From an uncultured archaeon (GTDB taxonomy: Archaea; Thermoproteota; EX4484-205; JAAOZP01): a stretch of DNA of 64,000 nt. Shown here piece by piece: positions 10,796 through 33,773 of this stretch. Position numbers and translations under genes: made by a program. The notes beneath the pieces are model-generated. The model did no database searches and was not told the origin of the DNA. It worked only from the letters and a program-made list of their open reading frames with translations. Position 1 is the first letter of the stretch, and each line of letters starts with the position of its first letter. The stretch spans positions 62,246 through 126,245 of the forward strand of contig CALIBN010000006.1 in the NCBI GenBank assembly GCA_938045545.1. The letters run 5' to 3'.

Positions 10796-10853
10796 CTTGT
10801 TTCTAAACACCCGTCTCACGATTTAAATATTGCTCACGTTTTTCAGAAACAAG
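10796..10853. promoter_or_regulatory. Symmetric bidirectional promoter CTTGTTTCT-N16-ATTTAAAT-N16-AGAAACAAG
   Basis: A 9-bp perfect inverted repeat shares its dyad axis with the palindromic TATA-like ATTTAAAT (10821-10828). Start codons lie about 30 bp to either side. Confidence 0.6.
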
Positions 10854-10856
10854 GCT

Positions 10857-11879: not shown

Positions 11880-11995
11880 GGTTTTTGAACCGAGTGAAAC
11901 ATTCGACAGCGTCATTTTATGCAAGCATATTATTCCTCATAGAAAAAATAAACACTTAAATAAGAAAACAGGATAAACAAACTGTAAACCAGTTA

Positions 11996-12685: not shown

Positions 12686-12694
12686 GGGATTATT

Positions 12695-13375: not shown

Positions 13376-13801
13376 TCAACAATGCCTTGTTTTGCCGATA
13401 TATAAGTTTTTCCAAAATTTCGAATCTGCGATACTTATTCTAGGCAATCCAGTTGATAGATATTTTTCCAGGAGCATTCCTCCCATTCACATCGAAAAGC
13501 TTCTAACAATTCATATTCTTCCTAATTTACTTTAGTGAGAAGGGCCTCTTCCCTGAGTGCGGTTTATCAGTTTCCCATCATCTATGCCAGAGCGCCAGAG
13601 ACCCCGTGAAAAATCCTATTTCTGTAAGCGTAATGGTAATTTCGCAAGGACATCAAAAATAATTTTTCACGCAATCAAAGGTTTATTCCAAGCTTTCCGA
13701 ATCATAAAGTCACAATCCAATATTCATCTTTTATACAAATCTCAAATACTGTTCCCCATATTTCTCCAGAGTAGTTACGCGAAGCTCAATAAGTGTTTTA
13801 C

Positions 13802-14356
13802 CTAATCAATTCTCAAGACATGGTTAAATCTACTCATCAACATATCCAGTAGCCTTTTCTCTTTTTCAGAAATCCCTGAGCCTTTATCGTCCATTAGAGA
13901 TTTATTGTAATATGAGTTTGCGACAACAGTGTTGGATAATTCTAGGCATTCGATTATTTTAAAAACGTTGCCAGAGTGCAAATAGATTGAGAGATCATTA
14001 ATTAAGAGAATTGGCGTAAGTTTCATTAAAAATTCTTCAATCAGGGGTTCAATCATCATTCTGTTAAACTCTGCAAGACTGAGAACTTCCTCTTTACTTT
14101 TGCCTTCTATTCTCGGAGCTCTTATTATCTGCGGTATCAAATATCTGACTTTGAAAACTTTAGGAGTATAGGAAGAAATCCTGCCTCCTACTCCTGGCAC
14201 GGTTGTGGGCGACATGTCTATTACTGTTATATCGCTAGGTGAAACTTTTTCAAGAAGCCTATCTAGTATTTCTGCAGTAATTTTTGTTTTACCACTACCC
14301 ATCTTTCCAAGTATCAATATCTTTCTTCCTAAAACGTCTTGAATAATATTATTCAA
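13802..14356 (-). CDS. Small P-loop NTPase of unknown function, last gene of the thiDN-thiW operon
   Basis: Walker A GKMGSGKT and Walker B-like ILLIND. TTG 14356 overlaps the thiW stop (ATTGAATAA). Confidence 0.75.
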   Translation of the reverse strand: MNNIIQDVLGRKILILGKMGSGKTKITAEILDRLLEKVSPSDITVIDMSPTTVPGVGGRISSYTPKVFKVRYLIPQIIRAPRIEGKSKEEVLSLAEFNRMMIEPLIEEFLMKLTPILLINDLSIYLHSGNVFKIIECLELSNTVVANSYYNKSLMDDKGSGISEKEKRLLDMLMSRFNHVLRID

Positions 14357-14894
14357 TGTCCTTAAGAGCACCTACTTTATCTAAAGCCAAGGCTAATAAT
14401 ATTCCAATAATGCATCCACTCACAGAGCTTAACGCCCATCCCAGATACAGAGGCAGCAGTGCACCAAACCTTGATTGCAAAACTGCTCCGAAGAAAGGAT
14501 CAACTATATACCATGAAACAGTACCACCTATGAAAACTGTCCCTACCGGCTCTCCTAATGACGCAAGAACAATTGCCCTTCTAATTTCAAACCTCTTCTT
14601 AAGTAGGATGTATAAAAATCCAACGACCAGTCCTCCTGGGATCCCGCCGGGATAAGCAAAAACCGTTCCCAATCCAAGCATTATTCGTAAAGTACCGACA
14701 ATAATTGCACAGAGAGAAGCCCACAATGGGCCAACCATTATCCCGGCTAAAACATTGATCACATGTTGACCTGGAAAAGCCTTTGTTGGACCCCATTGGA
14801 ACCATGCTACTGGAGAAACAGCTAAAGCAATAGCTGAAAACAATGCTGAGAGCACGAGCTTCCTTAAAGACTTGCCTTTAATCGTTTTAATCAC
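14349..14894 (-). CDS. thiW: ECF S-component ThiW (thiazole/thiamine precursor uptake)
   Basis: KAFPGQHVINVLAGIMVGP, LRIMLGLGTVFAYPG, GEPVGT; coupled to thiDN. Confidence 0.88.
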   Translation of the reverse strand: MIKTIKGKSLRKLVLSALFSAIALAVSPVAWFQWGPTKAFPGQHVINVLAGIMVGPLWASLCAIIVGTLRIMLGLGTVFAYPGGIPGGLVVGFLYILLKKRFEIRRAIVLASLGEPVGTVFIGGTVSWYIVDPFFGAVLQSRFGALLPLYLGWALSSVSGCIIGILLALALDKVGALKDIE

Positions 14895-16251
14895 CCAATT
14901 CGGAAGCTATCATTAATACTTTAGTAGCTACTTCAACAGCGTTTCTGCCAAGTATTCTTACCATTGGTTCTTTGCCAACATCCCCCAGGTCGTATATTAC
15001 GTCCGGTATTTTTCCAGCATTTTCAATGGCTTTTCCAACACCCCATGGTAGGCTTTCCCCCTCCTTAGCTTTAACTTCTTCAGGCTCTTTTCTTCTGTCA
15101 AAAGATGAAACTGTTAACTTCAATGATTTACATGCTTCAACTATCTCACTAGAGTATTTTATATTCATGGCTGCTCTCCACTCCTCTTCATACTCCATCA
15201 CCTTCAAAACTACTCTGGCTACGTGTGAAGAAGCACCGAACTCGGGGCCTCTAATAGCAAGTATCCTGTCCCCTAATTTAATAAGTCTCCCAGGTATTCC
15301 AGCCACATCTGATACGGAATTGGCATACCGCTTGGGTAAGGCCATGACTATGTTGCTTCCAACCTCAGGAATCAGCTTCGCAATTTCTGATGACTCCAGC
15401 ATCTTTACAGCCTTAGACAAATTCTCAATGACTCTGTATTTTTCGGCATCCCTCTCCATCCATGCTGTCGGATTAACTGGCCCATGTCCCTTGCCAATGT
15501 TTAAACCATATTCTATGGCGAGCTGGATGAATTTTTTAGCCTCTTCTAAGGCTTCCATAATGTTCTTGCCTTTAGCAAGCCCTGCGGCAATTGCTGCAGA
15601 GAAGCTACATCCTGTTCCATGCGTATTCCTCGTATCAATCCTGCTGCCATGCAGTTCATGAAACTCTCCGCCACTGTAAACTATGTCAACAGCTTCTTTG
15701 TTTTTCTCCAAATGGCCTCCTTTAACGACGACTGCCCTAGGACCTAATTCGGCGATCCTTTCAGCAGCAGCCTGCATATCGTCCAGTTTTGAAATTTTCA
15801 ACCCGCTTAAAACCTCGGCCTCGAATATGTTTGGAGTAACTACTGTTGCCACGGGTAAAAGCGTCTTCTTCACAGATTCCTCAGCCTCAGGCTTGAGCAA
15901 GCGGGCCCCGCTTTTAGCAACCATTACCGGATCCACAACCAACGGAAAACCGTATTCTCGGACCTTTTTCGCAACTAGTTCTATTACCTCTTTTCTATGA
16001 AGCATGCCTGTCTTAGCAGCATCTATACCGATGTCTTCGAAGACGACATCTATCTGTTTTTCCACAATGCTTAGCTCCACATCCTGTATGGCAAAGACGC
16101 CAACAGTATTCTGTGCAGTTATTGCCGTTAATGCCACGGTTCCATGTACCCCCATAACAGAGAATGTTTTAAGGTCAGCCTCTATTCCTGCCCCCCCACC
16201 AGAATCGCTTCCAGCTATAGTCATAGCAACAGGAATCCTCTTAGCCTTCAT
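14887..16251 (-). CDS. thiDN: Bifunctional HMP/HMP-P kinase and thiamine-phosphate synthase (ThiD-ThiN)
   Basis: ThiD motifs [31 protein letters not shown]; ThiN motifs [25 protein letters not shown]. Confidence 0.95.
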
Positions 16252-16271
16252 CTCTTATGCAAGCCGAAGTA

Positions 16272-16291
16272 AACATGTTTATAAACATGTT
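16272..16291. promoter_or_regulatory. Perfect 20-bp palindrome AACATGTTTATAAACATGTT over the divergent TATA box (candidate operator)
   Basis: Exact dyad centred on TTTATAAA, between thiDN and the HTH pseudogene. Confidence 0.7.
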
Positions 16292-16306
16292 GGCAACGTA
16301 TTTTTT

Positions 16307-16698
16307 ATGAAAACGCTTACGAGTACGTTATAAAAAGCTACTTGCCTCAGTTGAGAGCGAGGATAGTTAGAGAGCTCATCGAGTCTCACGGTTGGAGTAT
16401 AACGAGTGCAGTTAAGGCAATAGGGATCTCCTCGACTGCAGCCGCAAAGTACAAGAGGATAATAGCGACATCAAGCGGTTATTATAGCATAAGTTTAGAT
16501 TCGTTCTCGAGAAGCTTTGCCGAGAGAATATTGAAAAACGAGCTTACGCCAAGCAGTTTCATAGAAGAAGTGTGCTTAAAGTGCATTTAGGAAAGAGCGA
16601 GAGGAAGCATTTGTAAGCTTCACAGAAAAGTTCAACCACAGCTTGAAAGCTGTAGAAGTTGTTTCAAAGTATTTCAGAAAATGACTGAGCGCGCATAG
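16307..16698 (+). pseudogene. Archaeal HTH regulator (COG2522-like, resembling the ThiR N-terminal domain), disrupted
   Basis: MKT[frameshift][38 protein letters not shown]...CLKCI*ERARGSICKLH...CRSC; 1-bp deletion near 16316 and an in-frame TAG at 16588. Confidence 0.7.
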
Positions 16699-16756: not shown

Positions 16757-17719
16757 TCACCAGCCTTTTAAAGCAGCCTCCTTTAAGACCCCGGCTGGAG
16801 GGTTTAACCCTGCCTCTCTAAAAGCTATTAAAAGTGCGCCCACGGCAGGAGGGTATGCCGGTCTTTTAACATTAATCTTACCGTATTCTAATGAAAGGTG
16901 CTTCCTAATTCTTCTAGCCAGGATGTCCGAATGATGGTTAAACATTCCCCCTACAAGGTAAATGTTCAACTCGTCTCCACGGGTCAGCTTCATCTTTCTA
17001 GCCACAGCCAACACGCCTCTCGAGAGGGATTTCGCAGCATCCTCAATTATGCACCTGGCAACCACATCGCCTTTCTCAGCCTCAGCCTTAACTATTTTCG
17101 CGAAGAGCGCTATACGCTCCTTCCTCATCTCGTGGACACGCCTAGCCAATTCCTCCATACTCCTGGCTTTAAAGAAACTTTTAGCCTCCTCCTCAAGGCT
17201 CGTCCTACTTCCCCTTCCATCGTAAGACTGGAATGCTGCTCTCAAAGCCTCGATGGAAACAGAGTATGCCCCACCCTCATCGTTGAAAACGTGGCCCCAT
17301 CCTCCTGCTCTGAAAAATGAGCCTCCCGACACTCCTACAACAACCGAGCCTGTTCCAACCACGACTATAATACCCTGCTCCCCCAACCCTAAGCAGGCTG
17401 CTGCAGCAGCCTCAACATCGCTTTTGACCAGGATTTTACCAGCCCTAATCCTGTTTCGAAACAGTTTTTCAAGCATTCTCCTTGCTGTCCAGGCTCCCGA
17501 AAGACATAGTGCTACAACTTCAGCCTCGACGCACCCGAGTTTCCCCAGGGCTCCGTTAAACGCTCTCACCACTGAAAGCAGAGTTGTTTCAGGGCCTGCT
17601 GAAAGAATGTTTGACGGCCCGGATTTGCATGCGGCAACACGCCAACTGCCGGTTTCAACGGCCAGACACCTTGTTGAGCTCGCACCCCCGTCTACACCGG
17701 CTACAACAATGCGTTTCAA
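16757..17719 (-). CDS. BadF/BadG/BcrA/BcrD-family amino-sugar kinase (MurK-like GlcNAc/MurNAc kinase)
   Basis: GVDGGASST, VGTGS and RAGGWGHVFNDEGG motifs; start overlaps the namZ stop. Confidence 0.85.
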   Translation of the reverse strand: MKRIVVAGVDGGASSTRCLAVETGSWRVAACKSGPSNILSAGPETTLLSVVRAFNGALGKLGCVEAEVVALCLSGAWTARRMLEKLFRNRIRAGKILVKSDVEAAAAACLGLGEQGIIVVVGTGSVVVGVSGGSFFRAGGWGHVFNDEGGAYSVSIEALRAAFQSYDGRGSRTSLEEEAKSFFKARSMEELARRVHEMRKERIALFAKIVKAEAEKGDVVARCIIEDAAKSLSRGVLAVARKMKLTRGDELNIYLVGGMFNHHSDILARRIRKHLSLEYGKINVKRPAYPPAVGALLIAFREAGLNPPAGVLKEAALKGW

Positions 17720-18864
17720 CCGTAGAGAAGAACCCTTCTGACCCTAGCTTTAAACCTTTTCTGCTCGTCTCTCAGTCTCAAAACAATCTCTTCGACGCTA
17801 ACGCCGTTTAAGATGTTTCTCCTGACCTTGCTGTCGCCGAGCAGCCTATCCATCTTCCCGTGTTCAACTTCTAACTCCCTCGGGTGAACCTCTAGCACAG
17901 TTTGAAGGATGTTGACCCCAACCTGGAAAGGCTTAATCTTCCTCTGGTCTTCCACCACAAGGTGGATCCCTCTGCAAACCTTTCCCTCGTGTTTGGAAGA
18001 GGAAGGGATGAACCTGGTCTCCATGAGGAGGCAATCTTTACCCAGCTTACGTCTCAACACGGGGGCGACCTCCGCTGATTTAAACCATGGAGCACCGAAG
18101 ACTTCAAAAGGCTTGTATGTTCCCCTGCCTTCAGAAAGGTTTGTAGCCTCCAGAAGAACCATCCCGGAATAGAGTAGCGCGGCAACCGGCGTCGGTATTG
18201 CGGGCGAAGGATAAACCCAGGGCAGGCCCGTGTCGCAGAAGTACATCATCCTGCTCCATCCTGAAAGCCTCACCACCAAGGGGGGTTTCAAGCCCTTTTC
18301 GAAAGCATAGAGGAGAGCCAGCTCGCCGGGAGTCATGCCGTATCTAAGGGGAACGTAATACGGTCCAACGAAGGATTCAAGCCCCTTTTTTAAAACAGGG
18401 CCCTCCACGGTGAGACCACCCAGTGGGTTAGGCCTGTCGAGAATCATGAAGCCGACGCTGTTCTTCGACGCCTCCTCTAAACAGTTTAGCATCGTGGATA
18501 TGTAAGTGTATGTTCTGCATCCAACGTCTTGAATATCGTAGATCAGCAGGTCTAGCTCCTTAAGCGTCTCGACACTGGGCTTTCTCCGCGTGCCGTATAG
18601 GCTTTGAACACTAACCCCGTTTAAAGAAAGTTTTTCAGACTCCACTGGCTCACCGGCACCGTAGGCTCCCCAAAGCCCGTGTTCAGGAGTAAAGATGGTT
18701 TTAACACGTATCCCTTTTTCTAAGAGCCGTATGTAAGACGGGTCTAATCTTCTCGTCACCGAAGTATGGTTTACGATAAGCCCTATGTTTAGACGGGAAA
18801 GCCTTTCAAGCAGTTTTCTCCTCTCGAGAAGGACGTCCAGCCCCGGCTTAACCCTGCTTGCCAA
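17716..18864 (-). CDS. namZ: Exo-beta-N-acetylmuramidase NamZ (DUF1343/GH171), no signal peptide
   Basis: NHTS, FTPEHG, SLYG, DIQDVGCRTYTY, LDRPNP, RYGMTPGELA, PSPAIP, NLSEGRGT. Confidence 0.92.
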   Translation of the reverse strand: MASRVKPGLDVLLERRKLLERLSRLNIGLIVNHTSVTRRLDPSYIRLLEKGIRVKTIFTPEHGLWGAYGAGEPVESEKLSLNGVSVQSLYGTRRKPSVETLKELDLLIYDIQDVGCRTYTYISTMLNCLEEASKNSVGFMILDRPNPLGGLTVEGPVLKKGLESFVGPYYVPLRYGMTPGELALLYAFEKGLKPPLVVRLSGWSRMMYFCDTGLPWVYPSPAIPTPVAALLYSGMVLLEATNLSEGRGTYKPFEVFGAPWFKSAEVAPVLRRKLGKDCLLMETRFIPSSSKHEGKVCRGIHLVVEDQRKIKPFQVGVNILQTVLEVHPRELEVEHGKMDRLLGDSKVRRNILNGVSVEEIVLRLRDEQKRFKARVRRVLLYG

Positions 18865-18865
18865 A

Positions 18866-19579
18866 CTACTCGCCCAGGAGGCTTTTCCTCCTTATCCTCT
18901 TAACACCCCAGTCTCCGAAGGTCATGAACGCTTCAGCGTATTGGAAACCGACTTCAAGCCCTCTGATCCTTTTTAAGCAGGAATAGTAATCAACGTAGTT
19001 GAACCCGCTGTACTTTCCAGATGTAAAATCGTAAGTCTTAATCACATCCAAATATTTTTCGAAAACACTGCCGACGTCAACGTACACCTCCGGCTGGAAG
19101 CCCTGCGGGTCCTCCCAGTTCTCAGGATAGTAAAGCTCAACCGACCTACTGTGCCTCCCCTCCGCCCTCTGCTCTCCCGTGAAGCTTTCGAAAGCCTGTA
19201 TGGCTAGAAGGTGGCACGCAAGATGATCAGGATGATAGCTTCCCTTCCAGTGAATCAGAACCGCGTCAGGCATGAACTCTGAAAGAGCCTTATACATTTT
19301 CTGCTTAACCTCCTCCGCATCGTAGGGAACGCCCTCCACGCAACCCAGGAAACCCACTTCAGCATCCAGCTTCCTAGACGCTTCTAAAGCCTGCTTAACC
19401 CTTGTTTCAGCATACTCCTCAGCAGATAACCCTGGCGGACGAGCCCATTTTCCAGAAGGCTTAAACATGTGGAGTATTAGACATCTTCCCCCCTCCTCAG
19501 CGTTTCTCAGAATCGACCCGCCCGCTGTGATTTCAACATCCCCAGTGTGGGCGCTAAACGCTAGTATTTTAATGCCCAA
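18866..19579 (-). CDS. PIG-L/LmbE family N-acetyl-sugar deacetylase
   Basis: SAHTGDVE (variant of HPDD), HPDH, VYVDV...RG...G..YAEAF. Confidence 0.85.
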   Translation of the reverse strand: MGIKILAFSAHTGDVEITAGGSILRNAEEGGRCLILHMFKPSGKWARPPGLSAEEYAETRVKQALEASRKLDAEVGFLGCVEGVPYDAEEVKQKMYKALSEFMPDAVLIHWKGSYHPDHLACHLLAIQAFESFTGEQRAEGRHSRSVELYYPENWEDPQGFQPEVYVDVGSVFEKYLDVIKTYDFTSGKYSGFNYVDYYSCLKRIRGLEVGFQYAEAFMTFGDWGVKRIRRKSLLGE

Positions 19580-19585
19580 CGTTGG

Positions 19586-20506
19586 TCACCCTCTTTCAAT
19601 ACTCTTGGTGAAAACCGCGAACCTACGGGCTTCAGACATGCCGTTCCTCACGTAGAAACTGTAGTTTCTACCCCCGCCCCAGGCCAACCAAGCATTCTTA
19701 CCGCCGAGAGACTGGATCAGCCTTAGACACCTGTGGAACAGGACCGTCCCAACCCCCTTGTTCCTATGCTCCTCAGCAACCCCGAAAGGGCCGAAATGCT
19801 CTATCAGCCCGTCGGTAGCTATTTGACAATAGCCAACTATCTCCCCGCCGTGGAAAGCAAGAGTAAACCAGTCGAGACACCTAGGATATTTCTCCATCGT
19901 CCTCCTAGCGTCCTCGTACCACCATGGGAACCTGGCTTTAAGGAAGAGAAGAAGCTCCAACACGTGTTCATCGTCAAGCTGCCGGAATAAGTAGCCTTCT
20001 CCAGAAAGCCTTCTCTCAAGTTCTAAAACCTCTCTTGGTGTCGCGTATCCCATAAGCGACATGCTCATTGAAACCGATTCCCTGCTTGACTCACTGTAGC
20101 CGTTCTTGGTGAAGAAGCCTATCGCCCCCGGGTAAGCCTTAACGTCAACCCCTGGAACAAGGTATCTCGGCCCGCCTGAGAAGACTACTCTCTTAACCCC
20201 TTTCCCTCTGAGTTTTTCCTCAACCGTTGCAAGCATTCTCGACCCGACGCCCATGCCTCTAAACCCGTTTTTCACAGCAAGTATGTTTATGTATCCTGTT
20301 TCACCCCTTGTTACGGAGTAGATGAAGCCGACCACCCTGCCCTCGGACTCTGACACGATGCAGAGATCAGGATCATAATTCTCCTGCAGGAGAACCCTGT
20401 ACCTGAAGGACTCCTCGTTAAGCCTGTCGAGAGGCATCGCGTCATTGATGATTTCTAGAACAGGCCTGAGATCCCGGCCTTTAAAACTTCTTTCCTCCAG
20501 GTTCAA
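19586..20506 (-). CDS. Tandem-GNAT acetyltransferase (GlmA-like amino-sugar N-acetyltransferase)
   Basis: Two acetyl-CoA binding motifs (FRGMGVG; HRNKGVG), YLVPGVD and FGPFGV; first gene of the namZ operon. Confidence 0.8.
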   Translation of the reverse strand: MNLEERSFKGRDLRPVLEIINDAMPLDRLNEESFRYRVLLQENYDPDLCIVSESEGRVVGFIYSVTRGETGYINILAVKNGFRGMGVGSRMLATVEEKLRGKGVKRVVFSGGPRYLVPGVDVKAYPGAIGFFTKNGYSESSRESVSMSMSLMGYATPREVLELERRLSGEGYLFRQLDDEHVLELLLFLKARFPWWYEDARRTMEKYPRCLDWFTLAFHGGEIVGYCQIATDGLIEHFGPFGVAEEHRNKGVGTVLFHRCLRLIQSLGGKNAWLAWGGGRNYSFYVRNGMSEARRFAVFTKSIERG

Positions 20507-20590
20507 CGAAAATCTGTTTGAACTGCTACATATAAGTGTTTTTCAAACCCAAGGTTTATCACCCACCGGGTTAACGTATAACGGCTTAAC

Positions 20591-21586
20591 ATGGTTTCAA
20601 GACTGGAGAGGATAGACGCGGAGTTTGAAAAACTGTTGACGGAGCATAGAAACCCTAGGACGGTTAGGATAGACAGGGTTGAGGTGGTTGAGGCCTTGAA
20701 GATGATAAACAGGGAGGACAAGAAGGTGGCTAGGGCTGTTGAACTAGAGATACCGAGGATCGCCAGGGCTGTTGAAAGCGTCGTCAAAGCCTTTAAGAAA
20801 GGCGGTAGGCTGATTTACGTTGGCGCCGGCACGAGCGGCAGGATAGGAGTCATAGACGCGGCCGAGTGTCCACCTACCTTCGGCACAAGCCCAAGCATGG
20901 TTCAGGCTCTGATAGCGGGTGGAAGAAGAGCCATGTTCAGGGCTGTTGAAGGGGCTGAGGACAACATGAAGGCCGGGGTTAACGATATCAAGCGTCTTAA
21001 GGTTTCCGAGAGGGATGTCGTCATAGGGCTGAGCGCCTCGGGCAGGGCACCCTACGTGGCAGGGGCTCTTAAGGAGGCTAGGCGAAGAGGTGCTGAAACC
21101 ATTGCCGTCGCAACAGTGCCTAACCCTAAGATCGGGGTCTACGCCAACATACTGATAACGCCAATAGTTGGTCCAGAAGCGATAGCGGGGTCTACTAGGA
21201 TGAAGGCGGGTACTGCTGAGAAGATGGTGCTAAACATGATTTCAACAGTCTCGATGGTCAGGATTGGAAAGGTGTATACGAACCTGATGATAGACATTAA
21301 GCCTTTAAGCGTGAAGCTTAGGTCACGGGCTAGGAGGCTGCTACGCTTTTTCGCAGGAGTCTCAAGCGAAGAGGCAGAGGAAATATACAGGGAGAGCAGG
21401 TATGATTTGAAGGTTGCTCTAGTCATGGCTTTAGCGAGGGTTGAGGCAGGCCAGGCAAGAAAAGCTTTGAGGAAAAGCCAGGGCCTAGTCTGGAGGGCTA
21501 TAAGGCTGATTCAGGAAGAAAGCACGAGACCCAGGTTTAAAACTCGAAAACAACAACGTCGTAAACCATCAGGCTGTCCAGAGTGA
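20591..21586 (+). CDS. murQ: N-acetylmuramic acid 6-phosphate etherase
   Basis: TEHRNP, GAGTSGRIGVIDAAECPPTFG, AVEGAED, GPEAIAGSTRMKAGTAEKMVLNMIST. Confidence 0.95.
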   Translation: MVSRLERIDAEFEKLLTEHRNPRTVRIDRVEVVEALKMINREDKKVARAVELEIPRIARAVESVVKAFKKGGRLIYVGAGTSGRIGVIDAAECPPTFGTSPSMVQALIAGGRRAMFRAVEGAEDNMKAGVNDIKRLKVSERDVVIGLSASGRAPYVAGALKEARRRGAETIAVATVPNPKIGVYANILITPIVGPEAIAGSTRMKAGTAEKMVLNMISTVSMVRIGKVYTNLMIDIKPLSVKLRSRARRLLRFFAGVSSEEAEEIYRESRYDLKVALVMALARVEAGQARKALRKSQGLVWRAIRLIQEESTRPRFKTRKQQRRKPSGCPE

Positions 21587-23723
21587 ATTCAAAACAGTCG
21601 GGGAGCTCCCGGACGGGGAGCATGCCTCTATCGCTAAGCTTAAACACCCTCCTGGGCCGGCTACCCCTGATTCTGACTTTAATATTGTGCACACTGGTTA
21701 TGCTTGAAATAGGCCTCTGCATGTCTCCAGTAGTATTAACAAGGTGGACAAGAATTCTGCCCGTGCTTCTCTGCTCCCTGACTTCGAACAGCACCGTCTC
21801 GGGAGCGTCAACCTCCACGACAGGAGGCTTACGCATCGCAAACCTAATGCAGCCGGCATAAACCTGCGAGATATCCGGCATCCTGTACCTGGAGTAGAAG
21901 TCTTCAATAAGCGAGGAGAAGTAGATCGTCCTGCTCTCGCCGTGGCTACTGCAGATGATTGCAGCATAGTTCGAAACCCCTCTGGGAGCCGCGTAGTAGG
22001 CGCCTATCGGATTCATGAAAAAGCATATCGCCTCAGCATCCCGCCTGCTGAAAGCCTTAAGGCTATACACTGGTCTAGGGATTAACGCGCCAACAGGCAT
22101 TGAGAAGATTTTCTTTTCAGGCTCTGCAAGCTTCATGTATTCCTCCCCGACCCTGGGAAGCATCATGCCGTCGCATCTTTCTACGCCTAGAATACTCCAG
22201 AGCGGGTTTTCAAGCCTATGGTCCCCATACTCGTCATAACAACCGGTTTCAAAGGAGCAGACCAAGCTTCCACCCTTTCCAATGAAGCTTCTAACGCTGC
22301 GGATCTGTTCATCGCTCAAGCAGGCAGAGTTTGGAAGAATAAGCAGAGAGTATTTTTCAAGCTCGCCTTTGGCAAGAGCGTCATCCAGAATCACGTCGTA
22401 CGGAATATGGCTTCGGCTTAAAATGGTTGCAGCGCCCAGTATAGAGTTAGTGTAGATCTCGTCGCATATTTCCTTTCTCGCCTTAAGGTCTGTTTTCCTC
22501 CTGCCAGTACTCCCCTCTATCCTAAGGTCCCTCTCAACACCAGTCCCCGGATCCAAGTATAGTTCCCTGAGCTCAGACAAGTAGAACGTGGATGTTTGCG
22601 TTGAGACCAGCAGGGCTACTTCAGCCTTCGAGACAGTGTCAGCATAGTATTCTTCGTTTCTCGACAGGAAGCCGAGAATGTTTCTCATAGGGGTTAAGGC
22701 ATCCTCCAGCCTAGTGTCTAAAGCGTAGTCGAATACTGCGAACCAAGGGTTTGCACCGCAGGAAACGGTTTGCGCAACCGAGACCTCAGCCTCGAAACGT
22801 GGCAGGGGAACGTAGTGCCAGCTGCCCAGCGCGTGATGGCTGAAGACAACCGCCGGCTTACCTTTGGCGGCGAGGTGCTTAGCCTCAAGCGTCCAGAAGA
22901 TTAGAGGCACGTTTTGAGAACCAGGATGGAAGAACGCCTCTGCGCCGTTAAAATCCTCGTATTCGCTTAGCTTTTCAATGTTGCGGGCAACCCTCCAGCT
23001 GCCGGGCCACCAGGCCCCACCGTTAAGAAATATTACACCCTCCTCGTTAACCCTCTTAACAGCTTGACGAGCATCCCTGAGAAACTCAACCATAGACTCT
23101 TCTCTGAACTCTATGAATCTCTTCCAGAGAGGGTTCGACCAGTCTTCCCAGCTGGGAGGCTCGCTGCCATGCTTTTCCGAAAACTTTTCCCGGCATGACT
23201 TGCAGTAGCAGCACCCTGGGAAAACAACCGGCCCATCCAGGAAAACACCGTCAATCCCTGTTTTCATAGCCTCCTCTATGAGTTCGAAAGCCCAGTTTCT
23301 CCACCCTGTGTTCACGCAGAAAGTCGTCCCGGATCCATATAGGGGATGCACGCTACCATAGCTTCTACCGTCTTCTATGCGTTGCTCCCAATCAGCATGC
23401 CTACGTCCAAACTCATACGAATACCAGTGCATGTTCAAGTATGCTAAGACCCTGATCCCATGCTTCCTGGCATGAGGCAAGTATTCCCTCACCAGGTCGA
23501 AATCACCCAGCCCAGGATACTTTTCGAACTTCGGCGTGTTGAAAGTGGTTAAGTAGCCCAGCCCCGGGGCTGTCCCCGGCGTACCTATCACCCATTCGCA
23601 GTTAATATTCCACTCCTCCTTCTTCCACCCGGCCAGCTTATCCATGTCTGATTCAGCCATCCTGCCCAGAGCATCCAAGTAGTCGAGCCTCATCATCCTA
23701 ACGGGTTTCCGCCACCACTCCAA
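21537..23723 (-). CDS. Uncharacterised glycoside hydrolase (GHL6/GH42-like TIM barrel plus beta-galactosidase trimerisation domain)
   Basis: GIRVLAYL, CVNTGW, DGVFLDG, CCYCKSC, LILPNSACLSD..GGSLV, VHLVN. Confidence 0.75.
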   Translation of the reverse strand: MEWWRKPVRMMRLDYLDALGRMAESDMDKLAGWKKEEWNINCEWVIGTPGTAPGLGYLTTFNTPKFEKYPGLGDFDLVREYLPHARKHGIRVLAYLNMHWYSYEFGRRHADWEQRIEDGRSYGSVHPLYGSGTTFCVNTGWRNWAFELIEEAMKTGIDGVFLDGPVVFPGCCYCKSCREKFSEKHGSEPPSWEDWSNPLWKRFIEFREESMVEFLRDARQAVKRVNEEGVIFLNGGAWWPGSWRVARNIEKLSEYEDFNGAEAFFHPGSQNVPLIFWTLEAKHLAAKGKPAVVFSHHALGSWHYVPLPRFEAEVSVAQTVSCGANPWFAVFDYALDTRLEDALTPMRNILGFLSRNEEYYADTVSKAEVALLVSTQTSTFYLSELRELYLDPGTGVERDLRIEGSTGRRKTDLKARKEICDEIYTNSILGAATILSRSHIPYDVILDDALAKGELEKYSLLILPNSACLSDEQIRSVRSFIGKGGSLVCSFETGCYDEYGDHRLENPLWSILGVERCDGMMLPRVGEEYMKLAEPEKKIFSMPVGALIPRPVYSLKAFSRRDAEAICFFMNPIGAYYAAPRGVSNYAAIICSSHGESRTIYFSSLIEDFYSRYRMPDISQVYAGCIRFAMRKPPVVEVDAPETVLFEVREQRSTGRILVHLVNTTGDMQRPISSITSVHNIKVRIRGSRPRRVFKLSDRGMLPVRELPDCFEFTLDSLMVYDVVVFEF

Positions 23724-27845: not shown

Positions 27846-29771
27846 TTACTTCTTTCTGGATGCCACGAGCCAGCCGATTGCAACGCCTATTATAAGCGCT
27901 ACTATGCCAATGCCCCCGGCACTAACCACATCGAAACCTGGTGCTCCGGCAACTGTAGTAGTAACAGTGATTGTTACAGTTACAGCAGTAGGCGGCGACT
28001 TCGGCTGTATCCTAGCTAGTACGAAGAAGAACGTAGGCCACCAGTTGTAAGGCACTATGTACATATTGTCTTGAGAAGGCCAGCCAACCCAGTATTTGGT
28101 TGAGAAAGTCTGTACGAACGTCTTCTCAACCGCGGGAACAGTTATGCAGTCCCTCTGCACTATGTAAAAGGCTTCTTCCAGTAACGAGGCGGTACGCGGA
28201 TGGTCTAATGGTATTGTCCAAAGCTCATCTATTATGGCATCTAGCTCCGGGTTTCTGTACCTTGGATTAGCACCCTGGATACCGGGAGAGTTGGAAGTAC
28301 TACCGATAGGAGCGTACCATTTGCTGTGAAATACGTCTAGGGTTGACACAGGGTCACCCATGATCCATCCCGGGGTGCAGTGAGTACATATCCTTATGTC
28401 GTATTGGCCAAGCGCTGAGAGATCACCCAGCAGCGCACCTCCTATTTTAGTAGTGGCGTCTATTCCGACTGCCTTTAGTTCCTCCACTAGGTCATAACCT
28501 ATGTAGTGGGCAGCGTCTTCACCCAGCAGAAGCTCTACAGTGAACTTTGTCCCGTTAGGCAGCTCTCTAAACCCGTCTTTATCTATGTCCCGGAACCCTA
28601 GGGAGTCCAATATTTGTTTCGCCTTTTCAGGGTCGTATTTCAATTCGAAACCAAGTTCATTCTTGATTCTTTCTAGCCCCCTGTTAATCATGGGTTTATA
28701 CGGATCGAAAACAGCCCAAGAGTATGGCATCGGAAGAAGCCAATCTGTCGTCGGAGTGCCATTCGATAACGCATAAGCCCTAGCTAAGGCAGGACGGTTC
28801 ACTAAATAAGCTATGGCCCATCTGAACTCCCTTATGCTAAACGGATACTTGGCCACGTTAAACGAGTTAATCCCATAGGGACATGGGTCGGTATATGGAG
28901 CTATAACAATATCAATTGTCCTCCTCATAGCAGTACTGATCATCTCCCAAGTAAATATGTGGGGAAGCACGACATCGACATCACCCCTAACGAAGTCCTC
29001 AAGATCCACGTCGGCTGCAGGAATGCCACGCCATATCACGTATTTGGGAGTTGGGAAAACCCCCATATTTTTACCCCAGTAATCATCTCTCCTCTCCCAT
29101 ATGAACATCGGTATTTCTGGATAAACTGCATAAAGCTTGTAGGGGCCCGTGTCTACGGGTGGCCAATTCGCAAAGGTTTTCGGATCAACATTCTTCCATA
29201 TGTGCTCCGGGACTATGGGGAAATAGCTCCACATCCTGAATGTATGATGGAACCTTGGGTTAGGCTTCTTCAAGTGTACAACCAGTGTATAGTCGTCAGG
29301 CATTTCAACCGATTCAACCCATTCGTTAACATAACTTGAACCTCCAAAGTCAGGATTCTGTTTCAGCATGTTCATAGTGAATGCAATATCTCTTGCAGTA
29401 TATGGATGGCCGTCATTCCAAGTAACACCCCTCCTGATGTACAGGGTAAAGGTTCTGTAATCATCGCTATATTTCCACCCAGTTACTCTCCAGTATATGA
29501 TTTCGCCAGTAGCATAGTTAATGTACCAGTCCCATTCTTGTGCTATTTGGTGCCATCCAGAACCCCACTGCGAACCTTGAGGTATGAAGGGATTCGCTTT
29601 GTCAAATACCGTGAAGTAAGGTGAAAGCATTATCTCGGTAATTACTGTTTGATCCCGGGGGACAGGCAGAGCCGGTTGAGCCTTAACTGGCATTGCTAAG
29701 GGCATCAAGAAGGCAAATACAATTATTGATATGAAAATCGATTTAGCCATCCTTTTTAACAACATTTTCAC
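27846..29771 (-). CDS. Family 5 ABC substrate-binding protein (oligopeptide/oligosaccharide) with Thr-rich linker and C-terminal TM anchor
   Basis: Signal peptide; RRGVTWNDGHPYTARDIAFT, GPYKL, FRWAIAYLVNR; tail PTAVTVTITVTTTVAGAPGF-TM-SRKK. Confidence 0.92.
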   Translation of the reverse strand: MKMLLKRMAKSIFISIIVFAFLMPLAMPVKAQPALPVPRDQTVITEIMLSPYFTVFDKANPFIPQGSQWGSGWHQIAQEWDWYINYATGEIIYWRVTGWKYSDDYRTFTLYIRRGVTWNDGHPYTARDIAFTMNMLKQNPDFGGSSYVNEWVESVEMPDDYTLVVHLKKPNPRFHHTFRMWSYFPIVPEHIWKNVDPKTFANWPPVDTGPYKLYAVYPEIPMFIWERRDDYWGKNMGVFPTPKYVIWRGIPAADVDLEDFVRGDVDVVLPHIFTWEMISTAMRRTIDIVIAPYTDPCPYGINSFNVAKYPFSIREFRWAIAYLVNRPALARAYALSNGTPTTDWLLPMPYSWAVFDPYKPMINRGLERIKNELGFELKYDPEKAKQILDSLGFRDIDKDGFRELPNGTKFTVELLLGEDAAHYIGYDLVEELKAVGIDATTKIGGALLGDLSALGQYDIRICTHCTPGWIMGDPVSTLDVFHSKWYAPIGSTSNSPGIQGANPRYRNPELDAIIDELWTIPLDHPRTASLLEEAFYIVQRDCITVPAVEKTFVQTFSTKYWVGWPSQDNMYIVPYNWWPTFFFVLARIQPKSPPTAVTVTITVTTTVAGAPGFDVVSAGGIGIVALIIGVAIGWLVASRKK

Positions 29772-29887
29772 TCAAAGCATTATTAATTCAGGTACATATA
29801 AATCTTATGGTTAAAAAAGTAAACTCGACGGCCGGCGACAGAAAGCTTTTTATTTTAGATCTTTATCTTTCAAAGAAGGTAGAGTGA

Positions 29888-30907
29888 ATGACTAGTAAAA
29901 AACGCATTCTGCGCTATATGACGAAGCGTGTAATCGTCTACGTGATCACGTTATTCATATCATTCTCAATCGTGTTCTTATTCCTACGTTTGATACCGGG
30001 AGACCCTATAACACGATACTTGAGAATGCTTGAGCAGAGATACTCTTATTCAATGGAAATGCTGGATATTGTGGTAAAATGGAAGGCTGAGCTTGGTCTA
30101 GAAGGAGATCTATTTACACAATACTCGCGTTATATACAAAATTTATTCTTACGTTTAGATTTGGGCCCATCATTCGTGGCTTTCCCAACTCCGGTTCAGG
30201 ATCTCATACTGACGAGGCTGCCGTGGACGATAGCACTCCTAGGAGTGGCAACTTTAATTTCTTGGAGTATCGGTACTTTAGCAGGGGTAATATTAGGTTG
30301 GAAGAGAGGCACTAAATTTGACTCCACGCTTTTTACAATAGCTCTCTGTATGTCTCAAGTACCATATTATATCGCCGCAATTTTTTTAGTTCTACTTTTA
30401 GCCTATGTTTTCCCTGTTTTTCCATCCAGATATGCTTTTTCACCTGGAGTTCAAATAAAGCTCAGTCTCGACTTTATATCAAGTGTTTTATACCATTCTT
30501 TTCTTCCCGCATTATCCATAGTACTAACTTCTGCTTTTGGTTGGCTAATTTCCGCAAGGTTCCTTACCATTAGTATAATAGGTGAGGATTATCTTCTCTT
30601 TGCCCAAGCCAAAGGTCTAAAGGCAAACAGAGTCTTAAATAGGTACATTCTAAGAAATGCCTTATTACCGCAAGCCACAGGACTCGCCATGTCACTGGGC
30701 TTCATAGTAAATGGTGCTTACTTAGTGGAGTGGGTGTTTTCTTACCCAGGCATAGGAGGACTATTACAGTATGCTATAAATCTTGTTGACTATAATACTA
30801 TCCAAGGAATCATATTGATGTCAATCTTTACTGTTCTCACAGCCAACCTTATAATGGATCTGATTTACCCGTTGATAGACCCAAGAATAAGGTCTGGTGA
30901 GAGATGA
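29888..30907 (+). CDS. ABC permease DppB/OppB-like
   Basis: RLIPGDP, RLPWT, EDYLLFAQAKGL, EWVFSYPGIG, IDPRIR. Confidence 0.93.
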   Translation: MTSKKRILRYMTKRVIVYVITLFISFSIVFLFLRLIPGDPITRYLRMLEQRYSYSMEMLDIVVKWKAELGLEGDLFTQYSRYIQNLFLRLDLGPSFVAFPTPVQDLILTRLPWTIALLGVATLISWSIGTLAGVILGWKRGTKFDSTLFTIALCMSQVPYYIAAIFLVLLLAYVFPVFPSRYAFSPGVQIKLSLDFISSVLYHSFLPALSIVLTSAFGWLISARFLTISIIGEDYLLFAQAKGLKANRVLNRYILRNALLPQATGLAMSLGFIVNGAYLVEWVFSYPGIGGLLQYAINLVDYNTIQGIILMSIFTVLTANLIMDLIYPLIDPRIRSGER

Positions 30908-31797
30908 TGAATACTCTTAAGTTAAAAAAAGGATTAAAAAGCGCAGCATCATTTTTTGCGAGATCGACTGCCTTTAGAGTGGGAATTATCATGCTTAGTC
31001 TGATCCTGCTTCTAGCTTTATTAGAACCAGTCATAAACGGATACATTCTTAAAGGAAAAGGTCCTCTCAAGACCGGGGTTTTTGACAAATATTTACCTCC
31101 TTCTTTAGAGCATCCGTTAGGAACAGACCACTATGGAAGGGATGTGCTTGCTCTCTTACTAGCTAGCCTTAAGTATTCTTTGCTAATAGGAGCCTTCGCA
31201 GGATTGATCGCCACTTTGATCGGAACCACGATAGCTAGTTTATCCGGCTATTTTGGTGGCAAGGTTGACCTTATATTAAACAGTGTCACAAACGGGATGC
31301 TGGTTATTCCAAGTTTTCCGATTCTGATAGCTATTGCTGCGTATATACGACTCGATCTTATTACAATGTGCTTGGTCCTAGCGATATTCAGCTGGGCTTG
31401 GTCTGCACGCTTGGTAAGAGCCCAGATTTTAAGCATGAAGGAAAGACCCTATATAGAACTAGCTAAAGTCTCTGGCTTCCACAGTTTCGAAATAATGTTT
31501 CTAGAAATACTGCCGAACATGGCTCCCTTTATAATTATGGGTTTAATAAATAGCATAATGGGTGCGATGTTTGCTGAAACCGGATTAAGGGTTCTGGGTT
31601 TAGGGCCTGGTGAAATACCGTCTCTCGGCCTTATGATAAGCTGGGCACTTACTTTCGGAGCTATCTCCATAGGGCGTTATAACTTATTAGTAGCTCCGGC
31701 AGGGGCTCTCGTCCTGGTTTTCATATCGTTAAACTTAATTAACATAGGTCTGGAGGAAATATTTAATCCAAGGCTTAAAAAAATTACAGGGCTTTAG
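30904..31797 (+). CDS. ABC permease DppC/OppC-like
   Basis: HPLGTDHYGRD, ARLVRAQILSMKERPYIELAK, NPRL. Confidence 0.93.
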   Translation: MMNTLKLKKGLKSAASFFARSTAFRVGIIMLSLILLLALLEPVINGYILKGKGPLKTGVFDKYLPPSLEHPLGTDHYGRDVLALLLASLKYSLLIGAFAGLIATLIGTTIASLSGYFGGKVDLILNSVTNGMLVIPSFPILIAIAAYIRLDLITMCLVLAIFSWAWSARLVRAQILSMKERPYIELAKVSGFHSFEIMFLEILPNMAPFIIMGLINSIMGAMFAETGLRVLGLGPGEIPSLGLMISWALTFGAISIGRYNLLVAPAGALVLVFISLNLINIGLEEIFNPRLKKITGL

Positions 31798-31804
31798 AAA
31801 ATGG

Positions 31805-32809
31805 TTATTTAACATAGAGAAAGCACAGGACCCTTCTACCTGGCTCCACCTCTATCATAGGGGGCCTTTCTTTTTTACACACGTCCATAGCGTAGGGACA
31901 TCTTGGCCAGAATATGCAGCCCTTCTCTACCCTAGCCTGCTCCGAGAGGGAAGTCGCTTCTGCCAACTGCATCCGATCTTTCCATCTAGCCTTCGGGCTG
32001 GGAGCAGGTATTGAGGATAGTAAGAGCTTTGTATATGGATGCAATGGTTCATTTATAATTTCGTTGGTACTACCCTCCTCAACAACATTGCCTTGACACA
32101 ATACGATTAAACTATCTGCCACGCAGTTAGCTATATCCAGGTCATGAGTTATGTATAAGCATGAGGCCCCTATCTTATCTTTTAATACGCGTAACTGATC
32201 TAGGAATATCGCTCTTAAAGAAGCATCTATCATGGAGACAGGTTCATCCGCCACTATGAGTCTAGGTTTTATTAGAAGTATCCTGGCTAGCATTAGCCTT
32301 TGTCTTTCTCCTCCACTCAGTTGATGAGGATATCTTCCTAATATATCTTCAGGCCTGAGCCCCATGTCTTTCATAGCAGAAATAATCATATCTTCGATAG
32401 CTTTACCGTCGTTAACTATTTTCAACTTTTTTAAGGGCGCTTTGAGTATTCGCTCGACTCTATAGAAAGGATTATAGATGCTGTAAGGGTCTTGAAAAAT
32501 GGGTTGAACCTCTTTTAAATAAGCTAACTTATTTTTTCTGAGCCACTCCGATACAGACTTTCCTTTATATAATACCTTTCCATAAGTAGGCTCTAGCAAC
32601 CCCAAGATCAGTCTGGCTATTGTAGTTTTTCCACTGCCACTTTCACCTATAAGACCTATAGATACAGGCTTCTCAGAAGGCACTGAAAATGAAACGGAAA
32701 CTAATGCTTTAATAGTCGATCTACCTACTATTCCTAAACCACCGCCTACCCTATATTCATGCGTGACATCCTTCAATTCAAGAAGCGGTTCACTCTTCAT
32801 TTTAATCAC
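31805..32809 (-). CDS. ABC ATPase DppF/OppF-like
   Basis: GESGSGKTT, YPHQLSGGERQR, ADEP, HPYT, C-terminal Cys motif. Confidence 0.93.
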   Translation of the reverse strand: MIKMKSEPLLELKDVTHEYRVGGGLGIVGRSTIKALVSVSFSVPSEKPVSIGLIGESGSGKTTIARLILGLLEPTYGKVLYKGKSVSEWLRKNKLAYLKEVQPIFQDPYSIYNPFYRVERILKAPLKKLKIVNDGKAIEDMIISAMKDMGLRPEDILGRYPHQLSGGERQRLMLARILLIKPRLIVADEPVSMIDASLRAIFLDQLRVLKDKIGASCLYITHDLDIANCVADSLIVLCQGNVVEEGSTNEIINEPLHPYTKLLLSSIPAPSPKARWKDRMQLAEATSLSEQARVEKGCIFWPRCPYAMDVCKKERPPMIEVEPGRRVLCFLYVK

Positions 32810-33773
32810 CGTAAAGATGACATGCTACAAATCTACCTTGTTGAATTGATTTAACAGGAGGTTCGATTTCCCTACAGATATTCATGACAAAGGGGCATCT
32901 CGGATGGAACCGACAGCCTTTAGGCCAATCCAAGGGGCTTGGTGCCAACCCAGGTATACCCTTGATTATTTTCTTTTCAAGTGACGGCACGGCCGCTATC
33001 AGTCCTTTACTGTAGGGATGTAAAGGGTCCTCAAATAGTTCGTAGACAGGACTGACTTCTACAACTTTCCCCGCATACATTACGGCCACCCTATCACCAA
33101 CCTGCGCGTGAGCAGCCATGCTGTGAGATACTAAAACGATAGACATGCCGTACTTATCCTTGAGGGTCCTTAAAAGCTGCAGGATTCCCTTCTGAACAAC
33201 TACATCCAAAGCAGTGGTTGGTTCATCGGCTATAATTAGAGTAGGCTTCAAAGCTATGGCCATCGCTATTATGACTCTCTGTTTCATACCACCACTAAGC
33301 TCGTGAGGATACATTTCAGCCACCTTGGTAGATAGGCCCACTTCCTGAAGCAACTGCATTATAAGTTGCATAGCCTCTTTCTTTTTCATATCAGAATGAT
33401 CTAGTATAGCATCCATCATCTGTTCTTTGACTTTTAAGAAGGGGTTCAAAGAATTCATAGCACCTTGCGGAACGTAAGCTAACTTAGTCCACCTAATTCT
33501 GTTTAATTCTTTCTCAGGAAGTTTCAATAAATCTACTCCTTCAAATATGACTTTACCGCTGGGAATGTAGCCCGGAGTTTTAACTAGTCTAAGCATTCCA
33601 TCTACGAGGGTTGATTTACCACATCCCGATTCTCCAGCTATGCTGAAAACTTCATCGCGAACCACTTCTAAAGACACCCCGTCAACAGATTTATAGTCGC
33701 CATATATGCTTCTATAATATATTTTTAAATCCTTGACTTCCAGTATTTTATCCAAGACTTGCTCTGGTTCCAT
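32802..33773 (-). CDS. ABC ATPase DppD/OppD-like
   Basis: GESGCGKST, YPHELSGGMKQR, ADEPTTALDV, GCRFHPRCP. Confidence 0.93.
   Translation of the reverse strand: MEPEQVLDKILEVKDLKIYYRSIYGDYKSVDGVSLEVVRDEVFSIAGESGCGKSTLVDGMLRLVKTPGYIPSGKVIFEGVDLLKLPEKELNRIRWTKLAYVPQGAMNSLNPFLKVKEQMMDAILDHSDMKKKEAMQLIMQLLQEVGLSTKVAEMYPHELSGGMKQRVIIAMAIALKPTLIIADEPTTALDVVVQKGILQLLRTLKDKYGMSIVLVSHSMAAHAQVGDRVAVMYAGKVVEVSPVYELFEDPLHPYSKGLIAAVPSLEKKIIKGIPGLAPSPLDWPKGCRFHPRCPFVMNICREIEPPVKSIQQGRFVACHLYGD

Follow-up and report, generated by a model that had tools for sequence, protein, structure and literature searches.

Based on the gene content of a 64,000-nucleotide stretch of archaeal DNA (the window; part of contig CALIBN010000006.1 of genome assembly GCA_938045545.1, here G000) and on comparisons to related genomes and solved structures, we propose that five clustered genes at positions 16757 to 21586 probably form the core of a cytoplasmic route for the use of N-acetylmuramic acid (MurNAc) in a Brockarchaeota-type archaeon of the phylum Thermoproteota, with bacterial peptidoglycan as the source of the sugar. 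Only bacteria make MurNAc, which they build into their cell walls, and in sediments and hot-spring mats few pools of bacterial necromass are larger than peptidoglycan. What is observed directly is which genes are present, their order and conservation, their archaeal surroundings, and that genes for MurNAc synthesis were not found. The chemistry would be that of a bacterial MurNAc catabolic or recycling pathway, closest to the kinase-based clostridial version supplemented with NamZ, and what is new are the host domain, the cytoplasmic NamZ, a GNAT/PIG-L pair of an archaeal subfamily and a host that lacks such a wall. Judged from the sequence comparisons, we regard the finding as real, well supported and of clear ecological interest.

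Four genes are packed on the minus strand, encoding a MurK-like BadF/ASKHA sugar kinase, predicted to be a MurNAc/N-acetylglucosamine (GlcNAc) 6-kinase (16757..17719), a homologue of the exo-beta-N-acetylmuramidase NamZ (GH171, DUF1343; 17716..18864), a PIG-L/LmbE-superfamily deacetylase-like protein of a narrow archaeal subfamily (18866..19579) and a GlmA-like tandem-GNAT protein, predicted to be a glucosamine/glucosaminide N-acetyltransferase (19586..20506). In this order, the first two overlap by 4 nt and the next follow after 1 and 6 nt; all four face MurQ, a member of the MurNAc-6-P etherase family, on the plus strand (20591..21586) across a divergent 84-bp control region (20507..20590). 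The first-pass annotation of this DNA had described the same four tightly spaced genes opposite an intact murQ, with the same five family names and no signal peptides. The coordinates are identical in the open reading frame (ORF) listing of the window (320, 382, 237, 306 and 331 aa), hidden Markov models and structures uphold the families, and a simple, crude hydropathy analysis finds no N-terminal hydrophobic segment in the five proteins or in the neighboring GHL6 protein, with such a segment present in a nearby solute-binding protein. Across five species, two blocks of the spacer are conserved, AAACACTTATATGT and GTTAACC..GGT.G.TGATAAA, each with a TATA-like box approximately 25-35 nt upstream of a start codon. 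This likely represents a divergent promoter region, and the placement of the boxes would fit archaeal leaderless transcription. Rfam at gathering thresholds yields no matches in the window. As order and orientation recur in the loci L010, L011, L013-L018 and L055, the cluster is not a chance juxtaposition.

The kinase matches BcrAD_BadFG (PF01869, 123.9 bits), and its closest solved relative is PDB 8ZO3, named 'N-acetylmuramic acid/N-acetylglucosamine kinase' (E 2e-41, 145.6 bits, residues 6-302), followed by the S. tokodaii hexokinase 2E2N (1.8e-27). Against the GlcNAc-kinase equivalog NF046058 it reaches 86.9 bits, below the cut-off of 370. We read it as a MurK-type enzyme of the BadF/BadG ASKHA fold, nearest to a characterised MurNAc kinase and predicted to phosphorylate MurNAc at O6. 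NamZ is complete in both domains (NamZ_N 233.7 bits, NamZ_C 144 bits) and resembles B. fragilis DUF1343 structures (PDB 4K05, E 3e-63; 4JJA, 1.2e-42). In 100 aligned NamZ sequences the position of Glu61, in the PEHG motif, is Glu in 94, whereas E181 is kept in 100 and R247 in 99. For B. subtilis NamZ, the available part of the published account proposes Glu92, at the end of strand 2, and Arg279 of the C-domain as key residues (PMC8054146). Glu61 and Arg247 map to these through the motif and an offset of 31-32 residues rather than through a direct alignment. The NamZ N-terminus (MASRVKPGLDVLLERRK...) is charged and without a hydrophobic stretch by hydropathy, so that the NamZ step would be moved into the cytoplasm; secretion is not defining for the fold. 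MurQ exceeds the equivalog cut-off (TIGR00274, 365.4 bits against 302, model positions 1-290 of 291; NF003915, 397.5 bits) and aligns with the solved etherase PDB 4S12 over residues 14-300 (E 6e-86). Of the two glutamate-bearing stretches, AVEGAED is identical to 4S12 and DA(A/S)ECPPTFG differs by one residue, with both glutamates kept; these we take to be the two catalytic glutamates described for E. coli and H. influenzae MurQ. The protein is hence a predicted full-length member of the family, expected to release D-lactate.

The acetyltransferase carries two GNAT stretches in one protein according to Pfam, and its AlphaFold2 model (pLDDT 95.2) has as rank-1 fold match the C. acetobutylicum glucosamine N-acetyltransferase 5KF1 (TM 0.84/0.82, E 3e-21), the other best fold being the glucosamine-acetyltransferase GNAT region of the fungal GH3 protein 4ZM6 (TMq 0.86). 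Sequence identity to GlmA is only about 17%. Tyr285 is invariant in the family alignment; the catalytic Asp and Tyr of GlmA, D287 and Y297, are named in PDB titles of mutants. The tandem fold predicts a GlmA-like glucosamine/glucosaminide N-acetyltransferase. We note a second tandem-GNAT paralogue in the window (60024-60938), 25% identical to that of the cluster. The PIG-L protein matches PF02585 (63.4 bits, gathering score 28.2), has BshB1 as its best NCBIfam match (61.8 bits, below the cut-off of 182.5) and gives weak PDB matches to TT1542, BC1534-type LmbE and diacetylchitobiose deacetylases. Its subfamily is narrow, comprising 28 clusters, and has a strictly conserved ENWEDP block. In 19 aligned sequences, H116, D118 and H119 of the HPDH motif are invariant, with P117 variable in some, and motif 1 reads AHxGDxE, i.e. 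AH(T/A/V)GD rather than AHPDD, with His11 and Asp14 kept. AHPDD is the canonical form, in which the catalytic Asp precedes a zinc-binding Asp. On account of this non-canonical motif, the protein is filed as a divergent superfamily member of uncertain activity.

The locus is archaeal. The 16S genes of G000 (2.03 Mb in 51 contigs; completeness 92%, contamination 1.4%) are archaeal, and on a contig of 126 kb the cluster is embedded between archaeal flanks: a ThiD-ThiN fusion, ThiW, an Orc1/Cdc6-like fragment, an AglJ-like family 2 glycosyltransferase (GT2) and a PMT-like protein. Among 185,579 species genomes, the six nearest full-length NamZ loci are archaeal metagenome-assembled genomes (MAGs) at 75-89% identity, of which one is titled Candidatus Brockarchaeota and the others Thermoproteota, Nitrososphaerota or Thaumarchaeota; the next are bacteria, at 43% or less. 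A seventh locus (L055) is incomplete, covering residues 1-141 at 84% identity, and titled Crenarchaeota. The arrangement GHL6, murQ, then GNAT, PIG-L, NamZ and kinase recurs in congeneric loci at 72-92% identity, and with archaeal flanks in at least seven congeneric MAG species, GT2 and PMT being visible only in L015 and L017. In quick maximum-likelihood trees, with a bacterial sample biased to the nearest NamZ matches and supports below 95, all 34 archaeal MurQ rows stand apart from the 13 bacterial rows (SH-aLRT 89), and 25 archaeal NamZ rows fall together (SH-aLRT 80) with two copies from family f4 just outside. Given these supports and the choice of bacterial rows, the trees suggest, but do not show, that the genes were acquired once, long ago, and then spread among archaea. 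The embedding of the cluster among archaeal genes, noted earlier from the DNA alone, is thus borne out by 16S, flanks and synteny across MAGs as well as by the grouping of archaeal sequences in both trees, and a bacterial or chimeric origin is very unlikely. As a separate observation from the comparison of the window with L011/L018, NamZ and the kinase of two congeners are only 72-75% identical, lower than the adjacent PIG-L, GNAT, MurQ and GHL6 (87-91%), which suggests that the NamZ-kinase pair was swapped by recombination.

Muramic-acid synthesis by the host itself, which is not known from Archaea according to the first-pass annotation, was not found. In G000, murB gives no match, with the same search positive in 10 of 10 bacterial controls, the best murA match has 62 bits against a cut-off of 392.7, and the sole Mur-ligase-like gene (Mur_ligase_M) adjoins 5-formyltetrahydrofolate cyclo-ligase and looks like FolC. 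Further enzymes of the route are encoded elsewhere in the genome, namely NagA (312 bits, cut-off 225.65), NagB (339 bits, cut-off 236.9) and AnmK (431.7 bits, equivalog cut-off 387). The AnmK gene (C14:16192-18255, L143) lies beside a PBP4B-like gene of the beta-lactamase family at a contig end. HdrABC/MvhD (HdrA being interrupted by an intein), Endo_dU and a second BadF-type kinase lie on the same contig, which gives AnmK an archaeal context. The nagA region (C7:38000-57999, L100) looks like a second amino-sugar cluster. There, EtfB, EtfA and a GlcD-like FAD oxidase (GlcD 328 bits, below cut-off) adjoin nagA as a candidate for an electron-bifurcating D-lactate dehydrogenase, accompanied by a YdjC-type sugar deacetylase, a major facilitator superfamily (MFS) transporter and an AAC(3)-like acetyltransferase. 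For D-lactate use we also considered a D-2-hydroxyacid dehydrogenase in the window (10830-11879), whose best names, PGDH and glyoxylate reductase, all stay below cut-offs, making it a possibility only. A 514-aa GH3 protein consisting of the N-domain only is a weak candidate for NagZ. With the cluster, AnmK, NagA and NagB in place, a complete route can be drawn on paper that starts with MurNAc or anhydro-MurNAc and yields fructose-6-P, ammonia, acetate and D-lactate.

The same genes travel together in related genomes. Within a set of G000 and 40 relatives, NamZ occurs in 15, MurQ in 17, AnmK in 16 and the PIG-L orthologue in 16, in nearly the same genomes each time. These comprise 8 of the 17 members of the genus (G000 and seven others), both genomes of family f3, five or six of the six of f4, and G033 of f12, which is without PIG-L. 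Exceptions are G006, with AnmK only, and G010, without AnmK. Within the order, PIG-L is found in exactly the MurQ-bearing genomes, being absent from the eight pathway-free congeners and from G006. Across a phylum sample of 401 genomes and 161 genera, MurQ was detected in 37 genomes (36 over the cut-off) and 17 genera, whereas NamZ, MurQ and AnmK gave no match in any of four archaeal control genomes. A NamZ ORF shares the locus, within 1.5 kb, in 11 of 30 archaeal MurQ loci. Judging from the MurQ and NamZ contexts in other families, the window cluster is the form that a more widespread archaeal gene set for bacterial wall fragments takes in this lineage: family f27 has GH3, NamZ-MurQ(-kinase), an amidohydrolase and a beta-lactamase/Pab87-type peptidase; f39 has OPT, a C39-like peptidase, diaminopimelate (DAP) decarboxylase, GH3, kinase-MurQ-NamZ and a beta-lactamase-family gene; and f45 has a kinase, MurQ-NamZ, GH3, a beta-lactamase-family gene and AnmK. 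The version in the window adds GNAT, PIG-L and GHL6, with neither GH3 nor a peptidase at the locus. In G019, a relative from the same order, we observed that a NamZ-kinase-NamZ array adjoins a 1696-aa M28-like/FtsX giant membrane protein (L140, C10:9000-28900; 7877-16601), a possible importer or processing machine for wall fragments.

Taken together, we propose the following mechanism. Soluble, peptide-free wall glycans or sugars would be imported, and the signal-less NamZ would then clip MurNAc off the non-reducing end of MurNAc-GlcNAc. The MurK-like kinase is predicted to form MurNAc-6-P (and GlcNAc-6-P), with AnmK providing MurNAc-6-P from 1,6-anhydro-MurNAc in parallel. Next, MurQ would cleave the D-lactyl ether, giving GlcNAc-6-P and D-lactate, of which the former would be converted by NagA and NagB to fructose-6-P and ammonia, and the latter may be oxidised by the Etf-linked GlcD-like enzyme. 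GlmA is reported to re-acetylate glucosamine (GlcN)-containing fragments of de-N-acetylated walls, and the GlmA-like GNAT could do the same for fragments of naturally de-N-acetylated walls, allowing their entry into the route. Least certain is the PIG-L step, in which the N-acetyl group would be taken from GlcNAc or a GlcNAc glycoside.

Several points weigh against this proposal. Every chemical step is deduced from homology, and the MurNAc specificity of the kinase and NamZ is not readable from their sequences. As the genome is 92% complete, the absences of murA, murB and the ligases mean that these were not found, rather than proof of absence. The grouping of the archaeal MurQ and NamZ sequences stems from quick trees with a biased bacterial sample and supports below 95, as described above. 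No importer can be assigned to the route. Amidase_3 has no match in G000, and a match to Amidase_2, the AmpD/PGRP-type MurNAc-L-Ala amidase (C7:909-1208, L151; 87.5 bits), has two in-frame stops and no ORF, and appears to be a decayed gene; since no intact MurNAc-L-Ala amidase was found, removal of the stem peptides is unaccounted for. At the canonical catalytic-Asp position, PIG-L has Gly in 18 of 19 sequences and Ala in one, which renders its activity the least secure element of the cluster; the subfamily may use a different general base. Moreover, GNAT and PIG-L would cancel each other if acting on the same sugar. This clash would be resolved most simply by action at different stages, GNAT on unphosphorylated GlcN-containing fragments of de-N-acetylated walls, and PIG-L on GlcNAc, a GlcNAc glycoside or GlcNAc-6-P. 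Finally, feeding is indistinguishable from salvage of amino sugars for the cell's own glycans. The computational checks put forward in the first-pass annotation all turned out in favor of its claim of a cytoplasmic pathway for feeding on bacterial wall debris, of which the route genes and the archaeal host stand, while the purpose does not separate from salvage.

Salvage is possible, if not the outcome that we expect, and would alter the purpose of the pathway, not its chemistry: a subclade lacking GlmS would use scavenged MurNAc and GlcNAc as a source of GlcN-6-P and GlcNAc-6-P for N-glycans and surface glycans rather than for energy. The best GlmS match in G000 has 36 bits, below cut-off, and none of the nine genus genomes with pathway genes (G000, G002, G006-G010, G012 and G016) gives a GlmS match, whereas all eight pathway-free congeners encode it (679-691 bits). 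In G003 (L163), an HD-domain gene and Topo VI-A flank glmS. Both flanks are also found on one contig of G007 (L165), where the 9 kb between them are a different segment, which has a GHL6-family gene but no remnant of glmS. The AglJ-like GT2 and PMT-like genes beside the cluster are also compatible with a role in glycan synthesis. On the other hand, GlcN-6-P could also come from NagB, which is encoded in the genome, working in the reverse direction; the syntenic glmS site of G000 falls at the contig ends of C30 and C27, and the genus pattern possibly reflects one event in a single subclade, as kin are not independent. A GlmU-like match reaches 239 bits, below its cut-off of 292. A general rule that MurQ-bearing archaea are always without GlmS was discarded, as 8 of 20 further MurQ-bearing genomes have GlmS; many of the others have a SIS-only GlmD-like protein. 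It is a possibility that the subclade depends on scavenged amino sugars or on a reversed NagB. The stronger form, that it gave up GlmS and became dependent on MurNAc, anhydro-MurNAc and GlcNAc from bacterial walls for carbon, nitrogen and surface glycans, we consider rather unlikely. If true, it would represent an archaeal counterpart of the MurNAc auxotrophy of Tannerella, with growth tied to bacterial wall turnover or necromass, and such dependence on amino sugars might explain resistance to cultivation.

Alternatively, the enzymes may have shifted in specificity to a different substrate, e.g. a 3-O-ether other than MurNAc or an acidic hexosamine, derived from glycans of archaea or fungi or from exopolysaccharides. 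The anhydro-sugar substrate of AnmK is a product of bacterial lytic transglycosylases, and AnmK co-occurs with the cluster, as do genes for PBP4B-like proteins, Pab87-type D-peptidases and DAP decarboxylase in relatives; together with a MurQ above its equivalog cut-off and its strong full-length likeness to a solved MurQ, this makes such a shift improbable. Sequence alone leaves room for it, since it cannot fix the substrate, and the setting in a general sugar-utilisation island (GH42, GH63-like and GH20 proteins), the resemblance of GHL6 to fucosidases and galactosidases and a NamZ that is cytoplasmic, unlike the secreted B. subtilis enzyme of the accessible portion of the literature account (PMC8054146), would agree with it.

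There is, similarly, a slim chance that GNAT and PIG-L form a unit of their own, e.g. in a mycothiol- or bacillithiol-like thiol or glycoconjugate pathway in which a sugar is deacetylated and then acylated. The pair is adjacent in family f4 and kept apart there from NamZ and MurQ, in one case together with an MFS transporter and a divergent D-2-hydroxyacid dehydrogenase. BshB1 as the best NCBIfam match of PIG-L, some GNAT homologues named 'mycothiol synthase' and the tandem-GNAT build of MshD point the same way. However, the GNAT model fits GlmA far better than the mycothiol synthase MshD (TM 0.59-0.67), PIG-L tracks the MurQ-bearing genomes of the order as described above, GNAT homologues are found near NamZ in two bacterial loci (L021 and L061), and no MshA/MshC-type partners were seen alongside. 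An error of assembly or binning that placed bacterial DNA in an archaeal MAG is hardly conceivable: all five families are typically bacterial, the GC content of the stretch is slightly raised (0.51 against about 0.47) and the bin holds a second archaeal 16S, but the 126-kb contig carries archaeal genes on both sides, the same cluster and flanks recur in several archaeal-titled species, the trees show archaeal groups and TATA-like boxes are conserved in the spacer. As to the two 16S genes, which are 77.7% identical (C36:171-1653, L001; C16:29805-31302, L002), the one on C36 (8 kb, GC 0.53) is probably foreign to the genome.

Downstream of murQ, and convergent with it, lies the gene for GHL6 (GHL6/GH42M; 21537..23723, minus strand; PF14871 and PF08532), a three-domain, glycosidase-like and by prediction cytoplasmic protein that may be an accessory to the cluster. 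It is 55-57% identical to bacterial proteins, e.g. from Armatimonadota, and its Atlas matches are unnamed bacterial clusters only. It is syntenic in L013, L015 and L018, with a 45-aa remnant in L017 (G009); the high bacterial identity and this near-deletion in a congener make it look like a later addition, and weaken the notion that it is an obligatory part of the cluster. The AlphaFold2 model (pLDDT 92.5) has the GH151 alpha-L-fucosidase 6TVK as best fold (TMt 0.83), then GH42 and GH164 enzymes. A Thermococcus-type exo-glucosaminidase was considered and is not supported, 6TVK being also the only PDB sequence match. An ABC transporter of the Opp/Dpp family, with binding protein, two permeases and two ATPases by Pfam matches (27846..33773), is a candidate oligosaccharide importer, weakly linked to the cluster, from which the GT2 and PMT genes separate it. 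Its binding protein has a signal peptide, and among solved structures it is most like sugar-binding members of the Opp family: 4PFU, a mannoside binder of T. maritima (2e-46), and 1ZTY, which binds chitin oligosaccharides. The sugar-utilisation island further holds a GH20 hexosaminidase-like protein (56460-58250), which lies, like the second tandem-GNAT, 35-40 kb downstream, as well as GH42 and GH63-like proteins, GFO/IDH/MocA oxidoreductases and MtaA/URO-D-like proteins. A radical SAM protein in the window is split by an intein (54483-55991), and the NrdD of a relative (L134) has another intein.

A complete and conserved archaeal MurNAc route would link these organisms trophically, and directly, to bacteria through a food source that is defined and open to testing, and the gene set suggests that these archaea of hot springs and sediments live partly on bacterial wall debris. 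It would also mean that an organism without that type of wall can retain a 'recycling' pathway for consumption alone. In practical terms, MurNAc, GlcNAc or wall digests are suggested as supplements for cultivation, and the cluster is a potential source of thermostable NamZ, MurK and MurQ enzymes. The first-pass annotation knew of no such pathway characterised in an archaeon, and in the full-text literature we likewise found no account of an archaeal MurQ, NamZ or AnmK pathway, although subscription journals, largely outside this scope, and some supplements may hold one. The main text of the founding Brockarchaeota paper mentions neither peptidoglycan, muram*, murQ nor chitin, and in 12 of its 16 supplementary files peptidoglycan occurs eight times, only in generic CAZy family descriptions as judged from two of these. 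The main texts of a 2025 review of Bathyarchaeia (PMC12694404) and a 2023 paper on Bathyarchaeia genomics (PMC10321748) contain no mention of peptidoglycan or muram*.

Among known systems, the recycling operon of B. subtilis, as set out in the part of the report at hand, has the order murQ-murR-murP-amiE-nagZ-namZ with a secreted NamZ, and resembles the archaeal cluster in joining NamZ (GH171) and MurQ in one pathway that ends in GlcNAc-6-P (PMC8054146). Linkage of NamZ and MurQ is common in the compared bacterial loci, too. In contrast to that operon, as far as the same part describes it, the archaeal version is without the phosphotransferase-system protein MurP, MurR and AmiE, relies on an ATP-dependent kinase and has a signal-less NamZ (PMC8054146). 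Its host is moreover an archaeon, in whose 92%-complete genome muramic-acid synthesis was not found. The MurK kinase and GlmA of C. acetobutylicum, whose genes the first-pass annotation places side by side, are matched by a kinase whose nearest solved relative is 8ZO3 and by a GNAT whose top fold is 5KF1; the low identity to GlmA (~17%) and the addition of PIG-L and GHL6 set the archaeal cluster apart.

Tannerella forsythia cannot make the amino sugar and scavenges MurNAc from the walls of its neighbors via a MurK-type kinase and NamZ-type enzymes. It rebuilds its own peptidoglycan, however, whereas the archaeon has no peptidoglycan and carries the MurNAc-destroying MurQ. Within Archaea, the chitin pathway of Thermococcales employs a PIG-L-type diacetylchitobiose deacetylase, an exo-glucosaminidase and an Opp-type sugar ABC transporter, and is comparable as a cytoplasmic amino-sugar route that combines PIG-L with a large GH-A-type exo-glycosidase and an Opp-family importer. 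The similarity to Dac is weak (8BGN/3WE7, E 1e-4 to 8e-4), the T. kodakarensis glucosaminidase structure is not among the PDB sequence matches of GHL6, and the substrate proposed here bears a lactyl ether. A further comparison is with anaerobic ciliates, for which the available part of a recent account describes laterally acquired bacterial NamZ, murQ, anmK, pbp4b, nagB-PIGL and lysA, read as peptidoglycan degradation (PMC13198582). These hosts are eukaryotic, their PIG-L is fused to NagB and the genes form no operon, but nearly the same set is found in a non-bacterial feeder on detritus or bacteria, and, within what that account covers, the NagB-PIG-L fusions indicate that gene sets of this kind include a PIG-L enzyme elsewhere, too (PMC13198582).

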